Shown here: positions 17,336 to 28,456 of the stretch, in pieces
Layout of the letters: every line of letters starts with the position of its first letter
Position numbering within the stretch: position 1 is the first letter of the stretch
Source: a virus
Taxonomy: Duplodnaviria > Caudoviricetes
IMG/VR virus record: IMGVR_UViG_3300032247_001161
Span: 1-28,456 of that record
DNA: 28,456 nt
Strand: one strand, 5' to 3'
Notes under the pieces: generated by a model
Told to the model about the DNA's origin: nothing
Seen by the model: the letters and a program-made list of their open reading frames with translations, nothing else
Databases searched by the model: none
Position numbers and translations under genes: made by a program

Positions 17336-18336
17336 TCATGGGTCTGGGCTGGGTTGAGCAACCAGCTGCGTGAAGATCGGCAGCGGGAGCTCTCCCGTCT
17401 CGAGCAGGCGTGCCAAGACAGATCTCGTCTCCGGAGTCGGGCCGACGGGTTGAGCGCCCTCGGGGGACCAGTCGGGGAATGGCAGGAAGTCCTTGACATC
17501 GATCTTAGGGAGCTCGCCCTGAGCTCCGGCAAAGCCGTGAGCGATGCTGATCAGCTGGAGGCACAGCTTTGCCGTAGTGACGGACGCCAGGTTGTGGGTG
17601 CGCTGCTCCTCATTGCTGATGAACTCCAAAGCGGTCGAGATGGCGCAGAGCGGGGTGCGCAGGAATCGCTCTCGGGGGAAGTCCTGTCCGAGGGAGGAGC
17701 TTCGCAGTCGGAGGTACAGCGCGTCCCAGTCCGTCGCTGGGGTGCGCAGGATCAGCTCGCACCGTTTGATCTCCTCCTCGACATTCAGCTCTTCGGTTTT
17801 GGGCTTGGGGTTTCTGCCTCGGCGTTTCCCGCCGCTTCCGCCTCCAGCTCCTCCTTAGGCCAGCCGTCGCGTTCCCAGAGGATGAACTCGAAGATTTGAT
17901 TGAGCAGTTTGGTAGGAAGTACCTCAGTGTCTGCTTCGGTCCAGTCTTCTGTTTGAGTCCAGCTAGTGGACGACGGTAGCTTTACAGTGCCCCTGTGCCT
18001 CATGAAAAGGCTGACGTAATCAATCTTCTGTTCCGTAGCGCTGATTGAATCAGCAGAAAGAGCTTCGATGTCAGAAGAATACTCGTATAGAATGTCTTCA
18101 TTTTTATCGTCACCGATCTCGGTTAGTGCATTAAGCGCATCTTTGATGGGGATGTTTCTGTCTTTGGCAATGCGCTGTGCAAGACGCATTGAGCGGTACG
18201 TGCTCTTGGCTTGTTTCTTTGTGAGTGCTTCGATCCCCTTGGCTTCCCCAGGAGTCAGGTCTTCGAACACCGGGAAGCGGAACGGGCCGATTTTGTGGAA
18301 TCGCTCGGCCTCAAACAGGATGCTGTACTTGCTCAT
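17336..18336 (-). CDS. Tail assembly chaperone, long (-1 frameshift, G-T type) form, ~333 aa
   Basis: After G GGA AAC the -1 frame reads GKRRGRNPKPKTEELNVEEEIKRCELILRTPATDWDALYLRL... and is open into ORF 17336-17629. Confidence 0.85.
17785..18336 (-). CDS. Tail assembly chaperone, short form (lambda G equivalent)
   Basis: 183 aa, between the major tail and tape measure genes, with a slippery heptamer near its 3' end. Confidence 0.85.
   Translation of the reverse strand: MSKYSILFEAERFHKIGPFRFPVFEDLTPGEAKGIEALTKKQAKSTYRSMRLAQRIAKDRNIPIKDALNALTEIGDDKNEDILYEYSSDIEALSADSISATEQKIDYVSLFMRHRGTVKLPSSTSWTQTEDWTEADTEVLPTKLLNQIFEFILWERDGWPKEELEAEAAGNAEAETPSPKPKS
17824..17830 (-). other. -1 ribosomal frameshift slippery site G GGA AAC
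   Basis: In-frame GCG GGA AAC fits X XXY YYZ, at the canonical position for tail chaperone frameshifts. Confidence 0.85.
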
Positions 18337-21665: not shown

Positions 21666-22595
21666 TCAGGCCTTTTCCATGACGATGGTGCTCTTGGGGT
21701 AGTAGAGCGCCATGCCACCGATGCGGGAGTGGGCCGCAATGGTGAACTCGAGGCCGCGCCGCTCGGGAGGGAAGAACTCCAGGGGCTGCGGGATGTGCAG
21801 CTGGAGCTTGTCGGGCGAGCGGTCGTAGCAGATGATCCGGTCCTTGGACAGGAAGCCGAAGGACTTGGTGGCCTCGAGCTCGTTGATCGGCTCGATGCTG
21901 GTGATCATCGGGTTGGTGCGGAGGAAGAACTCCATCACCGTGGTGTCCGACGTGGTCGAACGGGGCCGGGTCGAGATGATGCGGTACACGTTGTAGGGGA
22001 CCAACATCGTGTTCGGCATCTCCTTCATGTTGGAGTTCTGGACGAGGCGGGTGGGGGCCTCGTTCAGCAGTTCCAGCATCTCGTCGGTGGTTGCGGTGTC
22101 GAACCAGACGGAGGGGACGAGCTTGTCGACCTGATCGTTGTTGAAGAAGCCCTTCATGCCCGAGGGGGAGTCGCCGAAATAGGCGATCTCTTGGACTTTC
22201 TCCTCGTAGGCGCGGCGCACGGCGTTGGCACGGCGCTGCTCCAGGTTCATGTTGGGCACCATGGCGGCGGCCCGCGTCTCCTGGACGGTGTAAGCGAACG
22301 AGCCGCCAAGGGACTTGATCGGATAGGTCACTTCCTTCCGAAGGACGTCGGCGCGGGGCAGATCCTGCGCCTTGTCACCGATGATCTTCATCGAACCTTG
22401 CTTGTCGAAGATTCGATAGGTGAAGCTATCGGCGCCAGGTCCGACCTCGGAGGAGATCGGGATCAGGCTGCTGTACTTGATGTCGGCGTACTCGACCTCG
22501 AAGGTACGGGAGAGGATGATCTCCAGTTCCCTCGCGAGAAAGATGCCGACTTGGTTGTCGAGTCGGGTGTCGTTTGTCATGGGGGTAGCCGTCAT
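21666..22595 (-). CDS. Major capsid protein (DUF2184/HK97 fold)
   Basis: 309 aa; FLARELE...LIPISSEVGPGADSFTY...DLPRAD...IAYFGD...GFFNN pattern; strongly biased codon usage. Confidence 0.88.
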   Translation of the reverse strand: MTATPMTNDTRLDNQVGIFLARELEIILSRTFEVEYADIKYSSLIPISSEVGPGADSFTYRIFDKQGSMKIIGDKAQDLPRADVLRKEVTYPIKSLGGSFAYTVQETRAAAMVPNMNLEQRRANAVRRAYEEKVQEIAYFGDSPSGMKGFFNNDQVDKLVPSVWFDTATTDEMLELLNEAPTRLVQNSNMKEMPNTMLVPYNVYRIISTRPRSTTSDTTVMEFFLRTNPMITSIEPINELEATKSFGFLSKDRIICYDRSPDKLQLHIPQPLEFFPPERRGLEFTIAAHSRIGGMALYYPKSTIVMEKA

Positions 22596-23215: not shown

Positions 23216-24496
23216 TTACTTGGTGGCGGTGAGAGGACGCTTCCAGGCTTCCGCTTGCCGTTGCCGGTAAGCCGAGACCGGCTGGTCGGCGTCGTGACGC
23301 TGCGCTCCGCGCAGGGCGGTGCGAAGGCGGGAGGTGTGGTCGATCGCGTCGCCGCGCTCGTCGTCCTCTTCGTCCTCTTCCTCTTCGTCGTCACCTTCCT
23401 CGTCTTCGAGGTCGTCCTCGGAGTCGTAGTGGGCGGCGAGCAGGCCGTCGACAACGCCGTGGACGTATTCGTCGCTGGCGTCCTCGGAGGGGGAGGAACC
23501 GGTCAGGTTCTCAAAGGCCTGGGCGTAGAGGTCGTCGTCGCCGATGCCGTCGAACTTGAAGTCAGGCTCGAAGGCGGGGGACAGACGTTGCAGGGTGGAG
23601 AGGCGGGCAGCGACCAGTTGGTCGAGCTCCAGGGTGTCGATGCGCGAGGCGCCTTCACCGTCGCTTCCCCCGAGAGCGTTCTCGAGAGCGTCGGCGCGAC
23701 CTTCAGCGGATTCTTTTTCGGTGGCGAGGGTTTCGAGTGCTTCCTCCAGCTCGTCAACCCTGGCTTGCAGGGCTTCGTTGTCGGAGGTGGCGGCCTGCAG
23801 CTGGCGTCCCATGTCCCTGGCGAAGGACTGGACCGCCGTAGCTGCTTCCGCGGGCAGATCGATCTCCAGGCCGTCGAGTTTGACGGTAGCCATGAGGAGA
23901 GATGCAGGTGGTTTGGAGGGTGACACCGAATCATCCTCGTGCTCGGCTACGGCGTCAGCCGCATCCATGCGATCGAGGAGAAGTCGAACCTCAGGGCCGG
24001 CACGGCCTCGGGGGACGATGGCGATGTGGTTGACCCTGATGTTGCGTTGGACGCCGTCGTAGGACTCGCCCTCGGGGGTGAATCCTGGGGTGGGGTCGAA
24101 GTCGACCTTGTAGCCGGCGGAGACCTCGGTGGCCTCTTTGCGCTTGATGCGCTCGACGGAATCTGCGTCGGTGACGACGAGAGCCACTTCAACAAAGCCA
24201 TCAGAGAACTTGACGTGGGAGCCGGAGGTTCCCTTGCTGAATTCGCTGGTGTTTGTCGCGTCGAGGAGGACCGGGGGGTGGGTCCACGTCACAGGTTTCA
24301 TGCCGAACGTCGCGAGGGTGTCGGGGTTTCCGACTTCCTCGGGCGGGCGATATTCCCGGACTTGGGAGCCGTCAGCACGCCGGTACAGCTGTGTGCCCGT
24401 GCGGGCCGCTCGACACCAGACCCTGAGGTAGCCCTCGGGGGTGGTTTCGCTCCTGGTGATAGGGGCGAAGTCGTAGCGGCAGACTGATGCGTCCAT
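23216..24496 (-). CDS. DUF2213-family prohead protease/scaffold protein
   Basis: 426 aa; TPEGYL...ARTGTQLY...RPPEEV...PVTWTHP...EVSAGY...YDGVQRNIRVNHIAIVPRGRAG is the DUF2213 signature; acidic coiled-coil C-terminal half. Confidence 0.9.
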   Translation of the reverse strand: MDASVCRYDFAPITRSETTPEGYLRVWCRAARTGTQLYRRADGSQVREYRPPEEVGNPDTLATFGMKPVTWTHPPVLLDATNTSEFSKGTSGSHVKFSDGFVEVALVVTDADSVERIKRKEATEVSAGYKVDFDPTPGFTPEGESYDGVQRNIRVNHIAIVPRGRAGPEVRLLLDRMDAADAVAEHEDDSVSPSKPPASLLMATVKLDGLEIDLPAEAATAVQSFARDMGRQLQAATSDNEALQARVDELEEALETLATEKESAEGRADALENALGGSDGEGASRIDTLELDQLVAARLSTLQRLSPAFEPDFKFDGIGDDDLYAQAFENLTGSSPSEDASDEYVHGVVDGLLAAHYDSEDDLEDEEGDDEEEEDEEDDERGDAIDHTSRLRTALRGAQRHDADQPVSAYRQRQAEAWKRPLTATK

Positions 24497-24534
24497 AGGG
24501 ACAGATTACGCACTTCAGCTGTGGGCGTTAGCCT

Positions 24535-24551
24535 TATCCGCAGAGCGGATA
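24535..24551. promoter_or_regulatory. 17-bp palindromic candidate operator TATCCGC-AGA-GCGGATA
   Basis: Perfect 7-bp inverted repeat in the 62-bp gap between the divergent HTH and DUF2213 genes, directly after a -10-like TAGCCT (24529-24534, plus strand). Confidence 0.55.
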
Positions 24552-24558
24552 CCGTTGC

Positions 24559-24774
24559 GTGGCGATTCACAGGCAGCTTTTGATGTGTCGAAGATTGCGT
24601 GCGCTGCGTGAAGAGAATTTATTGACGCAGAGTGACGTTGCAGAGAAGCTGGGGGTTAGTCAAGCTGCGTATTCAAGGCTGGAGAAAGGTGAGATTGAAG
24701 TATCGCTGAATAAGCTGATCAAGTTGAGCGAGTTGTATGGGTTGTCGCTTGCGGTGCTGTTAGAGGGGGTTTAG
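24559..24774 (+). CDS. XRE/Cro-CI family helix-turn-helix regulator
   Basis: RLRALREENLLTQSDVAEKLGVSQAAYSRLEKG is a canonical HTH_3 motif. Start is GTG 24559 or ATG 24583. Confidence 0.9.
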   Translation: MAIHRQLLMCRRLRALREENLLTQSDVAEKLGVSQAAYSRLEKGEIEVSLNKLIKLSELYGLSLAVLLEGV

Positions 24775-24962
24775 CGGTCTTGACGTTGCCTAGACATGAT
24801 CGCGGCCTCGGTGTAACGCTCGATGTTCGAGGCGAATTGAGGCGACGCACCTTTACTGCGGACTTCTTCTGCCAGTTTGATGATAGCGTTGATGTCACCG
24901 GCACGGGCTAGATCGCGGGCTTGGACCGTGTACGACTTCATGTCAGCGAGAGTGAATGTCAT
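24771..24962 (-). CDS. Hypothetical protein (63 aa)
   Basis: ATGA overlap with the upstream gene; helical; ends RQRQDR. Confidence 0.55.
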   Translation of the reverse strand: MTFTLADMKSYTVQARDLARAGDINAIIKLAEEVRSKGASPQFASNIERYTEAAIMSRQRQDR

Positions 24963-26449
24963 CCTAAGCCTGCAAGGGGTGTTCCGCGTGGATTCAACTT
25001 TACCGGAGGTTGGGTGATACGTGGGTGTCGCGCCGCAATGTTCATGACGTTGTCGATGAAAGCGTGGACACCTGGATAATCACGTTTGAGCCTTTTACCT
25101 GCTGTGACGTAGGCCACGAAATACTCCGCGAAGGCTTCGTCGTCGTGGGTTCTCCCGTATTCAGTCATGCCACGAGACCATTCTGCACTGATCTGGGTAG
25201 GAGGTTTTGCGTATCCGGTTTTGTGATGGACGCTATGACCCAGCTCGTGGATAAACGTCGTAACGTCCTTAGCAGTTAAATTCGGTGAGTTTGACATGTT
25301 CTGAGTCCGTTCCCAAACTCGCTCGAGCTCTTTAGCTGAAATGACACTTGTCGGTAACTTGTCTATTTGGTGTTGTCTCTCAATCGCATCCATCGTTCTT
25401 TGAGTAGAGTTGGCGACTTCTTTCATAACTTTAGGGTTTATTTTACCCCTGAATCCTTGACGTCTTATCCAGATTTCCTGGTCATAGCCGTCGAAGTAGC
25501 AACCTGTGATATTTAGACTTCTCTCATTTATGAGCGTGTCGCTAAAGCTGATACGCTGACGTCCAATATTGCGCCTTGCACGTGCGGTCAGCCGCTCCAG
25601 TGCTCTGGCGTCCATGCCGACACTATGACGTGTAATGTACCGGCTAACCTTGTTTATGGCTTGATGATCTACTCTATCATCCGCGATGAGCGTACGCACT
25701 AAACCGGCCATCTCTGATGACGAATGAGATTGCGCTGCGGTGCTGATCTGATATGCGTGGGCAGCTGCAAACGATTTCTGGTCAAACGGTGTATCGGGGC
25801 TAACAATAGACTTTACAATAGCTCTATTTACATTGCGACTATTTGGACCTGAGGTATTGACAATGCCTGCGTAGGTTGTGCGGGAGGTCTTGTTGTGATG
25901 GATTCCGGCACCGAGGTCGCTGGACTGAGCTTCCGGTTCGCGGCGTGATAGTGCATAAGCACCTCCAGCAATAGCTCCAGCGACAAGAGCGATTTTAGCT
26001 GCAGTTAGGCCTGCGTTGTTAGTGGTAGTTCCCGCACCCTTGCCGCATTTGTAGCCTTTGGCGATGTGTGAAGCCCCGCAGGGCTTGCCTTTGGCGCCCT
26101 CGGGGGAATCCTGGCGTAGCCGGGGTTTGCCTCCGGCGCCGTTGCGGGCGCGGTTGGTGGAGGGGGCTTCAAGGGTTGTGCCCCCCGAGGACGTGTGAGA
26201 GATGTCGGGGCCGCCTTTGCCGTAGATGCCGCGGCGGCGGCGCTCACGGTTCAGCGCGACACGCCGATCGACTTCGTCGGGCTGGCGGTTGATGGCCGCC
26301 TGGTGGCGCACCTTGCGGCGGCGGGCCTTGGGGTGGGTGCGGTAATAGGCGGTGGAGTCGCCCTCGGGGGCGTCGGTCGTTACCAGGCCGAGGACTTTCC
26401 CGGCGTGAGCGCGGTGTCGCGGCGGCTGGTTTTGCCCGAGCACTTCCAC
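24959..26449 (-). CDS. Modular protein (HNH-like unit, Cys header, HExxH zincin metallopeptidase), probably translated by -1 frameshift from the upstream gene
   Basis: HELGH at 25235-25249 plus TEYGRTHDDEAFAE; PCGASHIAKGYKC header. The annotated GTG start lies inside the upstream ORF with no visible RBS. Confidence 0.75.
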   Translation of the reverse strand: MEVLGQNQPPRHRAHAGKVLGLVTTDAPEGDSTAYYRTHPKARRRKVRHQAAINRQPDEVDRRVALNRERRRRGIYGKGGPDISHTSSGGTTLEAPSTNRARNGAGGKPRLRQDSPEGAKGKPCGASHIAKGYKCGKGAGTTTNNAGLTAAKIALVAGAIAGGAYALSRREPEAQSSDLGAGIHHNKTSRTTYAGIVNTSGPNSRNVNRAIVKSIVSPDTPFDQKSFAAAHAYQISTAAQSHSSSEMAGLVRTLIADDRVDHQAINKVSRYITRHSVGMDARALERLTARARRNIGRQRISFSDTLINERSLNITGCYFDGYDQEIWIRRQGFRGKINPKVMKEVANSTQRTMDAIERQHQIDKLPTSVISAKELERVWERTQNMSNSPNLTAKDVTTFIHELGHSVHHKTGYAKPPTQISAEWSRGMTEYGRTHDDEAFAEYFVAYVTAGKRLKRDYPGVHAFIDNVMNIAARHPRITQPPVKLNPRGTPLAGLG

Positions 26450-28065
26450 TTGGCGCGGGAGAGGCAGAGGGGGGTGTTGCGCTCGGCGCCGGAGCAGTCG
26501 TAGCCCTCGGATTTCATGTCACCGAAGGAGCGGGCGCAGTAGTTGTTGCCCTTGGAGGTGCCGGGGGCGATGGTGTAACCCTTGGCGCCGTAGCGGACAC
26601 GGTTCTTGCGGCCGGTCTTGGGGTTGGTGACGACCTTGGTGTACTTCTTGCCGTCCTCGGCATCACCCTTGAAACCGCGGGCCTTGCGGCGGCGGGGCTG
26701 GCCGGTGCGGGGGTCGACGCTGACGCGCTCGGGGGTCAGAGGCTGAGTGGGGGCAAAGGGAATCTGGACTGGGGAGGCCCCTCCGGTGAGCGTTTTGGGG
26801 GCCTGGGCCGCGGGCTTGGGGTTGCGGCGGTAGCCGGGCTCGTAGCGGCGGCGGGCGGCCTCGGTGCGGAGGCGCAGCTCGCGCAGGGTGGTCTTGGTGG
26901 CCATGCCTGCAGCTTCGCCGGTGGCGGCCATGGTGTTGCCGATCTGGGCGATACGGCGCACTTCCTCCTTGGCGGTTTGGCCGATTCGGCCCTCGGCCGC
27001 CTTCATCGCAGCTGCGGTGTTCTCCCGCATGCGCTGGGTCTTCGACTTGGGCGGAGTACCCGGTCGCAGAAGTCCGTGGGGTTTGAAGCCTGGTAGACCG
27101 GCAGGAGTGATGTTGGGACTCCCCTTGAGCTGTAGGGTTCCGCCTTGGCCACCTGAAGGTGTCTGACGACTCAGTGTGAATGCAGCGATTCCACCGGCTG
27201 TCAGGGCCGATCCGATGACGGCTGCAGTAGGCCAGGAGCCTCCCTTGCGGCACTTGGCTCCATCAGGGATGCCGGAGGCACCGCATTTCTTGTCGAACCG
27301 GGGTGAGCGTTTGTTGGACATGACACGACTGACGAGGTTTGAGATGTTCTGCTGCTTGACAGCACGTTGCCTGTAGCCCTTTGACGCAGCTGCTGAAAAG
27401 AGAGCTTTAGTAAGAGCAGCTGTCATGGGAGATACATCTTTTGTCTGCGTAGAAATTGGCAGATCGTTTACGATTGCACGAGCTGCAGTTTCACAATTCG
27501 TCTCGAACCCCGTCCAATCAAATGTTTTGCCGTTGAGCTTCTTTACAATCGTGAGTAACTCTTCGCGTGTAGGCTTTTTGCTGGTGTCGCCATCGGCCCT
27601 TGAAGCCGGCGCATACGACGTACCGTTGCCGTGCGCTTTTTCGATTGTTCGAACACTTAAAACTGAGGCAGTGGACCCTCTACGCTTTTTGACAGACGTA
27701 TCGAATACTTTGTGGACGCCGTCTATCTTGCCTAAGTAGACAGCGTAATGAGCTCGCTGAGCTCCCATGAACTCTGCAGTTTGGTAGATGAGATCACCAG
27801 GCTGGAAGCTGTCGTATAGGCCCTCTGGTGGAGTTTTGGGCGGGACGCGGTCGGCAGGTACACCGCTGGTGAAGATGTCTTTGGCCAGGACACCTAATAC
27901 TGCTCCTGTAGTGGCTACACCAGCTATAGTGAGTAGCCTTGCTGTATCTACATTGCCACCTATCGGTGCAGCTGCAGTGGTCTGCTTCGTACATTTACGG
28001 CCGTCAGGAATACCTGACGCTCCACACTTCTTGTCTGACCTCAGCGAAGTGGGAGTCAGGGTCAT
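26380..28065 (-). CDS. Modular protein: two Cys-header units, an LRAT/permuted NlpC-P60 domain and a DUF6321-like C-terminal domain
   Basis: 561 aa; DKKCGASGIPDGxKC occurs twice; PGDLI...HYAVYLG...NCE; KKY...RYGAKGY...NYCARS...RAKWKC. Confidence 0.78.
   Translation of the reverse strand: MTLTPTSLRSDKKCGASGIPDGRKCTKQTTAAAPIGGNVDTARLLTIAGVATTGAVLGVLAKDIFTSGVPADRVPPKTPPEGLYDSFQPGDLIYQTAEFMGAQRAHYAVYLGKIDGVHKVFDTSVKKRRGSTASVLSVRTIEKAHGNGTSYAPASRADGDTSKKPTREELLTIVKKLNGKTFDWTGFETNCETAARAIVNDLPISTQTKDVSPMTAALTKALFSAAASKGYRQRAVKQQNISNLVSRVMSNKRSPRFDKKCGASGIPDGAKCRKGGSWPTAAVIGSALTAGGIAAFTLSRQTPSGGQGGTLQLKGSPNITPAGLPGFKPHGLLRPGTPPKSKTQRMRENTAAAMKAAEGRIGQTAKEEVRRIAQIGNTMAATGEAAGMATKTTLRELRLRTEAARRRYEPGYRRNPKPAAQAPKTLTGGASPVQIPFAPTQPLTPERVSVDPRTGQPRRRKARGFKGDAEDGKKYTKVVTNPKTGRKNRVRYGAKGYTIAPGTSKGNNYCARSFGDMKSEGYDCSGAERNTPLCLSRAKWKCSGKTSRRDTALTPGKSSAW
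26395..26401 (-). other. Candidate -1 frameshift slippery site G GGA AAG
   Basis: In-frame CCG GGA AAG lies four codons before TAA, and the -1 frame is ORF 24959-26449. The heptamer is identical to the lambda G-T site. Confidence 0.75.
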
Positions 28066-28403
28066 GGGTTAAAGCCAGTGGCCCAAACTGAATCTCCACG
28101 CTGCTCCCGTTTACCAACAATTTGGCTGATGGCCATTAGCTCTTTGTACTCTTGCTGTTTCGTCGCCCACTGATGAAACTTGTTGAAGTCTTGGTGGACG
28201 TTATCTCGACCTCCATATTTCACGTAAAGATCGTTGACTAGCATGTCTTTGTGACGCATAAGCACGTCAGTTGGCACCTTGTCAAGGCCTTGGGTCACCC
28301 CTGAGGATGTTTGGGACGTCTGCGTGTGGCATTTCTTGCCATTTGCAATTCCGCTTTTACCACATTTGATATCAAAGCGGAGGGGCAGAGTTGGATACGT
28401 CAT
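28062..28403 (-). CDS. Small Cys-header protein (113 aa)
   Basis: MTYPTLPLRFDIKCGKSGIANGKKC...RGDSVWATGFNP; overlaps with both neighbours (TAATG, ATGA). Confidence 0.75.
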   Translation of the reverse strand: MTYPTLPLRFDIKCGKSGIANGKKCHTQTSQTSSGVTQGLDKVPTDVLMRHKDMLVNDLYVKYGGRDNVHQDFNKFHQWATKQQEYKELMAISQIVGKREQRGDSVWATGFNP

Positions 28404-28436
28404 TACAGGTCGTAGAGCGTGGGGTCGAAGCCGGCA
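28403..28436 (-). CDS. 3' end of an upstream gene (partial)
   Basis: Reads ...AGFDPTLYDL*, with the TAA overlapping the next ATG. Sequence beyond is a homopolymer run. Confidence 0.4.
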
Positions 28437-28456
28437 GGGGGGGGGGGGGGGGGTGA

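Follow-up and report, generated by a model that had tools for sequence, protein, structure and literature searches.

The slippery heptamer of the lambda G/GT frameshift belongs to the G_GGA_AAG class, and the frameshift of E. coli dnaX has a Shine-Dalgarno sequence and a hairpin as stimulators. The lambda products G and GT are made at about 30:1, and in E. coli G_GGA_AAG is rated as highly prone to shifting (PMC5009743). Frameshifts in head genes have been described for gene 10 of T7/T3, Lactobacillus phage A2 and Listeria phages A118, A500 and PSA (PMC5009743), and that of phiEf11 ORF10 was called speculative by its authors (PMC5221750). Therefore, a position outside the tail genes, which a sequence-only reading of the present locus had stressed, is not new in itself. 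Some retroviruses use two -1 sites (PMC5009743). The polyvalent and MuF-fused proteins are head-associated, mix zincin metallopeptidase, protein kinase and ADP-ribosyltransferase domains, and have been suggested to undergo processing and delivery into host cells (PMC5512222); the word 'frameshift' does not occur in the main text of that paper. In addition, MuF-like and VIP2 ADP-ribosyltransferase genes are among the tool predictions of possible shift-joined genes (PMC10885494).

The window, i.e. the whole 28,456-nucleotide stretch of phage DNA analysed here, carries on its minus strand a head-tail region with a DUF2213 head protease, a cement protein, a major capsid protein and tail genes, together with two cargo ORFs (Table 1). 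The 561-aa cargo ORF ends with CTC ACG CCG GGA AAG TCC TCG GCC TGG TAA (T-P-G-K-S-S-A-W-stop), in which G_GGA_AAG at 26401-26395 keeps the X_XXY_YYZ phase with the upstream ORF, as the sequence-only reading had it. A slip at this heptamer (site A, the on-ramp) would lead into a -1 frame of 478 codons and yield a fusion of 557+478 = 1035 aa, in agreement with the length of about 1035 aa predicted earlier. It was also correctly counted as the second site of the window, the first being the tail-chaperone-type G_GGA_AAC. We propose that a programmed -1 slip at G_GGA_AAG very probably extends the 561-aa head-cargo product to a 1035-aa form with a predicted enzyme module.

Table 1. Coordinates of the features discussed (window positions unless a relative is named)
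Feature	Position	Strand	Remark
Tail-chaperone-type site G_GGA_AAC	17824..17830	-	-1 frame open 164 codons; just upstream of tape-measure gene
Major capsid protein	21666..22595	-	56% identity to Synechococcus phage S-CBS4 (best named match)
DUF2213 head maturation protease	23216..24496	-	PF09979 E 3e-43; phrog_530
-1 frame, 478 codons	24959..26395	-	without conserved start
HELGH motif of predicted zincin metallopeptidase	25235..25249	-	phrog_241 E 6.4e-6; Peptidase_M3 E 0.0011
phrog_6437 / Syn5 gp50-like module	26114..26358	-	between 12-nt direct repeats
Conserved short hairpin CGCCC-CCGA-GGGCG	26359..26372	-	22 nt past heptamer
Linker cassette R-R-D-x-x-L-T-P-G-K / V-L-G-L-V-T-T-D	26372..26424	-	flanked by two putative processing motifs
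Zero-frame stop TAA	26380..26382	-	4 codons past heptamer
Zero-frame cargo ORF, 561 aa	26380..28065	-	leader, two CG-x-I-x-C modules, LRAT/papain-like region, WKC module
Slippery heptamer G_GGA_AAG, site A (on-ramp)	26395..26401	-	in phase with 561-aa ORF
WKC module, small viral domain	26413..26655	-	standalone in S-TIM5-like cyanophages
LRAT-like region, weak	27475..27807	-	aa 87-197; PF04970 E 0.0089, under curated cut-off
113-aa cargo ORF	28062..28403	-	leader and CG module as in 561-aa ORF; ATGA-coupled to 561-aa ORF
Site B (candidate off-ramp)	L085:2533-3840; also L002, L003, L007, L032, L080, L161, L290, others	+ (L085)	about 110-130 codons into -1 ORF

The small modules of the window match cyanophages S-TIM5, S-CBS2, P60 and Syn5; on these matches and that of the capsid protein to S-CBS4, a cyanobacterial host is likely for the window phage and its aquatic relatives. 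Searching genomes with the cassette pattern gave two matches, neither near a phage head gene, which were taken as chance and so name no host. A lone plus-strand HTH gene (24559-24774) lies between the cargo cluster and the protease, and a repressor-like gene occupies the same place in S-CBS4. No sigma-70 promoter was found in 24400-28456, and no tRNA genes in the six partial loci scanned. The contig end contains a long C run (minus strand, 28434-28453), possibly an edge artefact of sequencing or assembly. The two cargo ORFs, the head protease and the capsid protein (starts 28403, 28065, 24496 and 22595) all have an R-x-D motif among their first 13 residues.

Since GGGAAA is not rare in the window (8 observed versus 13.75 expected, thus not over-represented), the case for frameshifting rests on conservation. 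Searches with a peptide pattern yielded 38 distinct linkers; 34, including that of the window, are out of frame and 4 are in frame. All 34 out-of-frame linkers carry GCCGGGAAAG, and the GCC ahead of the heptamer (26404-26402 in the window) is likewise invariant; the sequence-only reading had named conservation of GGGAAAN at this junction as a check, and G_GGA_AAG is found in 34/34. One more cassette came from a heptamer-containing search, giving 35 shifted cassettes, 33 of which have a locus retrieved independently of the heptamer. With a pattern for the downstream module, 33 of 51 viral matches were cargo genes (31 shifted with G_GGA_AAG, 2 in frame), as were 18 of 72 metagenome matches (16 shifted with G_GGA_AAG, 2 in frame). 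The unrelated genes (18/51 viral, 54/72 metagenome, as well as L291, L292 and L117) were left out of these counts, the metagenome cargo rows were sorted by eye, and many contigs are common to the two match sets. Among the best 80 of 271 viral WKC loci, 22 have the shifted cassette directly after WKC and 3 an in-frame linker, and most of the others end at the module end or join other modules. The linkers of L061 and L152 are shifted.

This invariance exceeds the local background at synonymous positions (34/34 versus 0/18 four-fold sites). Codon use in the flanking ORFs is 0.11 for ACG, 0.24 for CCG, 0.12 for GGA and 0.61 for AAG, and over 26 loci no codon is invariant at any of the 18 four-fold sites or the seven Lys sites of the WKC module. 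The relatives are kin, neither clones nor independent (their WKC modules share 74-98% identity), and many loci repeat a single contig; therefore the counts overstate independent origins. In addition, the variability among relatives changes frame at the junction. Upstream of site A it peaks at the third positions of frame 0 (0.27/0.11/0.77 bits), and downstream at the third positions of frame -1 (0.44/0.35/1.06 bits). The zero-frame stop lies 0, 1, 3 or 4 codons past the heptamer in 8, 3, 16 and 8 of the 35 cassettes, respectively.

The cassette also follows modules other than WKC (L011, L012, L014, L024, L025, L082), which indicates that it travels as a unit. Four relatives encode the joined product in a single frame. 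L002 reads CCG GGG AAA GTT, i.e. the shift product is hardwired, and L161 reads GAC GGG AAA GTT, whereas L003 and L032 have lost the heptamer and read T-P-L-T-V-L-G-L. These natural in-frame fusions show that the joined product is tolerated. The longer homologues, three for the -1 ORF and four for the WKC module, are large in-frame polyproteins without the linker; the peptide of site B (see below) is present in one of them. Three loci have an intact cassette followed by a short -1 frame without enzyme domain, namely L108:1608-1670 (-) with 21 codons, L227:1748-2035 (-) with 96 codons and L094:2533-2826 (+) with 98 codons.

What follows the cassette varies. Of the 35 shifted cassettes, 25 are followed by a RIO/Kdo/APH-like kinase whose HGDIHxGN and DFG motifs are intact; an ADP-ribosyltransferase-like extension is found in L228:362-1153 (-) (E 1.2e-4, under the cut-off), and unclassified extensions in L144:2001-2621 (+) and L145:1187-2035 (-); in 6/35 the extension is short or cut. 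The -1 ORF of the window contains HELGH and, downstream of it, a Glu in EAFAE, as in a zincin, but this region has a model pLDDT of 41 and its Pfam and PDB sequence matches are under the cut-off. The HExxH motif occurs in the window only (1 of 39 downstream frames). The slot is thus exchangeable between kinase, ADP-ribosyltransferase-like and predicted zincin modules, and the metallopeptidase, earlier taken as the point of the device, is not the point. The label HNH-like for the module at 26358-26114 is a lead, with no Pfam match and with HNH_3 in 32% of the members of the nearest named Atlas cluster. An exact 12-nt direct repeat flanks it (26370-26359 and 26106-26095), and a related contig skips 26097-26362, i.e. 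lacks the module, which suggests that recombination at the repeat inserted or removed it. Mapping of 13 long loci out of 35 retrieved placed the cassette towards the end of a cargo cluster between portal and head protease, and each of the 13 showed portal or protease.

A stem-loop or pseudoknot 5-9 nt downstream, or a Shine-Dalgarno sequence 9-14 nt upstream, is common but not obligatory at such sites, and neither was found at site A. Two downstream stems had been suggested. The stem CCTCGG/CCGAGG can be drawn in the window, but only 70% of its cells pair over 32 distinct relatives, no better than shuffles, and this suggestion is dropped. The stem CGCCC-CCGA-GGGCG is indeed conserved, with 97% of cells paired and a conserved pairing of 4 bp (CGCC/GGCG); no two-sided change was seen that would argue for it as a stimulator. 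The 60 nt past the heptamer in the window fold no better than shuffles (z -0.23). Hairpins enclosing the heptamer were considered and rejected, as their possible pairs are invariant or broken (mean z about -0.7). Only some relatives have a Shine-Dalgarno-like GGAG about 10 nt upstream, and the window has none. What remains conserved at site A is the heptamer with its 5' GCC, CC at +7/+8, GACGC at +20 and the stop 0-4 codons on.

A second copy of the heptamer, site B, is absent from the window and precedes the kinase in the relatives. The peptide pattern CGGGLGK-IQAPAKFD gave 24 distinct sequences, all with G_GGA_AAG, and the -1 frame beyond it meets a stop after 7 codons in 23 of them and after 5 codons in one. 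The layout mirrors that of site A, except that GACGC stands at +21, not +20. Site B is an apparent off-ramp in relatives with kinase in the slot. Alternatively, it may be a conserved protein sequence with biased codons and no recoding role, next to a real site A. Gly-Lys is conserved in the protein sequence itself, the GKPCG motif too is often encoded with GGA AAG (10/36 after site A, 12/24 elsewhere), and chance alone would give a short -1 frame. However, all 24 sequences keep GGA, AAG and the G ahead of them although the codon ahead is CTG, GCG or ATG (Leu, Ala or Met), and the -1 stop is kept via TTT GAC, CTT GAC or an earlier TAA, surviving changes of the Phe codon in L080 and L290. Moreover, the heptamer lies 128-163 codons before the catalytic loop in 26 of the 38 distinct kinase entries, a further one carries G_GAA_AAG at this place, and the 11 without it are other kinase types; a divergent kinase subfamily keeps G_GGA_AAG (L032) or has G_GAA_AAG (L103) at the position of site B. 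A purely protein-level origin of site B thus appears unlikely. Site B is also kept in the hardwired L002, L003, L032 and L161.

Further sites of this kind were found in the window and its relatives. Among the GKPCG motifs that do not follow site A, G_GGA_AAG is present in 12/24, and the GGA codons are preceded by G in 12/12 versus 3/12 for the others (p 3e-4, for sequences that are not independent). Such copies lie about 600 codons into a large post-portal ORF in L259, L263, L265, L269, L270, L277, L285, L286 and L290, and the GKPCG copy is a possible third, looser off-ramp candidate. The tail site reads G_GGA_AAN in 13/13 aligned sites (loci including L262, L263, L265, L269, L277, L280 and L281), most of which are followed by a -1 frame of about 160 codons. 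Its last base is C, G or A, unlike sites A and B, which always end in G. Two GGGAAA copies 13 nt apart lie near the start of the tape-measure gene (16950-16945 and 16937-16932, minus strand).

Slippage of the RNA polymerase at GGGAAAG, with one base inserted, would make the same fusion at the transcript level and hence the same product, and L002 differs from the shifted form by just one extra G in the run. However, the runs of three in the heptamer are short for polymerase slippage. Such slippage also needs no X_XXY_YYZ phase, whereas sites A and B and the tail site all keep it, with differing G-ending codons ahead. We therefore regard a transcriptional origin of the fusion as very unlikely.

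A separate downstream gene, with its start at a buried GTG, at the ACG that overlaps the TAA or at an internal codon further on, is highly improbable in our view. The neighbouring genes are coupled by TAATG (28403) and ATGA (28065 and 24962), as noted earlier, and TAACG at the junction is one base off the TAATG of its neighbour. The GTG reported within the W-K-C codons does exist at 26449, although it is not the only one, a second in-frame GTG being present at 26443. Later ATG, GTG or TTG codons 20-180 codons downstream are found in nearly all relatives, and the HNH-like module has its own coupled start in L013, L054, L056 and L073. In these four loci (L013:3247-3260 for the first), the HNH-like module after WKC starts at ATGA or GTGA, an alternative to the frameshift. 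However, 15/35 cassettes have a stop that closes the -1 frame and no ATG, GTG or TTG between it and the linker Asp, so that the GTG at 26449 is not needed, and an ATG ahead of this Asp is found in only 3/35. The ACG start was rejected, as relatives have AGG, CGA, CGC, CTA and other codons there. The stretch ahead of the internal starts already shows coding-like variation in frame -1. The -1 frame is thus coding, as seen from the variation pattern and the kinase motifs, and has no conserved start; a separate gene would also leave the invariant heptamer and the in-frame fusions unexplained.

An assembly error or an inherited inactivating deletion that split one gene can be dismissed, even though four distinct in-frame versions exist and the support for the junction comes from contigs rather than raw reads, because the same frame break recurs in 34 distinct sequences from many samples, the downstream kinase motifs are intact with third-position-biased change, and contigs of two other runs cross the junction without the indel that the sequence-only reading had named as refuting, one from another study over 25960-27048 with 61 substitutions and no gap, the other from a second sample over 26362-26660, likewise gapless, with 9 substitutions. 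For this gap check, the run from which the window probably derives, which matches it throughout, was not counted as independent. Taken together, the invariance of the heptamer at synonymous positions, the switch of variation from frame 0 to frame -1, the lack of a conserved start, the in-frame fusions and the gapless contigs strongly support the frameshift.

The ordinary cargo genes begin with the leader M-x-L-T-P-x-x-L-R-x-D, followed by a CG-x-I-x-C module, and their Thr-Pro codons are varied, with ACG CCG in 1/14. The cassette looks like such a leader that has lost its ATG and gained a slip site; in the window the second motif, past site A, is T-T-D instead of R-x-D. We take these motifs as putative cut sites of the DUF2213 head protease on both sides of site A. 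The products would be carried inside the head and would have the host as their target. Based on these comparisons, the following working scheme is proposed. Ribosomes on the 561-aa cargo gene would slip back one base in a fraction of passes, with tandem re-pairing of tRNA-Gly from GGA to GGG and of tRNA-Lys from AAG to AAA. Most ribosomes would end the carrier at the nearby stop, and some would add the enzyme. The head protease would then free the modules, in which case the shift would determine how many copies of the released enzyme are made rather than how a fusion behaves. If the slot holds a kinase, site B would divert a further fraction to the stop 5-7 codons on, giving a carrier-only product, and the kinase yield with sites A and B would be about p(1-p) for a shift efficiency p.

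A far more tentative idea is that the portable cassette forms a two-gate circuit of on-ramp and off-ramp. The kinase might then stay at or below a quarter of the carrier and be buffered against a host-dependent shift efficiency (e.g. tRNA-Lys supply or modification), a third, looser copy might trim the post-portal polyprotein, and one heptamer might set the stoichiometry of both the tail chaperone and several head-packaged enzymes. If p is a few percent, site B would mainly yield a minor carrier-only product, and if p is large or host-dependent, the pair of sites would cap and buffer the kinase output. The low ratio of the long form assumed by the sequence-only reading is an extrapolation from lambda. 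If the proposed recoding holds, phages ration packaged, host-directed enzymes by this means, and the hardwired and heptamer-less variants are ready-made natural controls. Annotation pipelines split such loci into two genes with a false start, and would thereby mask a regulated fusion in widespread aquatic phages. On-ramp and off-ramp, with the same heptamer and a similar 3' layout, would also offer a compact test bed for stem-less G_GGA_AAG shifting and for frameshifting on cyanobacterial ribosomes.

A literature search covering few subscription papers found no report of the cassette or of the on-ramp/off-ramp pair. Similar to lambda G/GT, a -1 shift near the gene end would give a short product and a C-terminally extended one, at a G_GGA_AAG class of site with no strong stem needed as far as tested in the window family. 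Unlike in lambda, site A lies in the head cluster and not before the tape-measure gene, the tail site at 17830 being separate, and the extension is a swappable predicted enzyme, not a chaperone domain. Assignment to the tail assembly chaperone class was therefore rejected, as site A is located between portal and head protease rather than between the major tail and tape-measure genes. The capsid-gene frameshifts of T7/T3, A2 and A118/A500/PSA resemble the present one in lying outside the tail chaperone, in head genes, with two virion products. However, they extend the capsid protein, often by an Ig-like domain, whereas the gene of site A is an accessory cargo polyprotein with a predicted catalytic and exchangeable extension and, in relatives, a second terminating site. 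The capsid-extension class (T7 10B, A2, A118) was likewise rejected, as the upstream gene is not the major capsid protein (22595-21666).

Comparison with the polyvalent proteins revealed the same predicted catalytic classes, zincin, kinase and ADP-ribosyltransferase, in the site A cargo, and several unrelated conflict domains of these kinds occur in one putatively head-associated polypeptide. Unlike in polyvalent proteins, R-x-D leaders delimit the cargo modules of the window family, and neither MuF nor another hallmark polyvalent domain was detected in the window ORFs of the cassette. As in retroviral Gag-Pol and Gag-Pro-Pol, an enzyme would be made at a set ratio as the extension of a packaged carrier and then likely released by a viral protease (PMC5009743). 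There is no homology, and both retroviral shifts extend the product, whereas site B would terminate it. On paper, site B resembles E. coli dnaX tau/gamma, in which a -1 shift at an _AAG site leads to an early stop and a shortened form (PMC5009743); the Shine-Dalgarno and hairpin stimulator of dnaX are not conserved at site B. The device thus works like lambda G/GT and Gag-Pol and is a member of neither the tail-chaperone nor the capsid-extension class. Head-gene frameshifts being known already, what appears new is the exchangeable predicted-enzyme extension on a cargo gene, together with the apparent second, terminating site in relatives.
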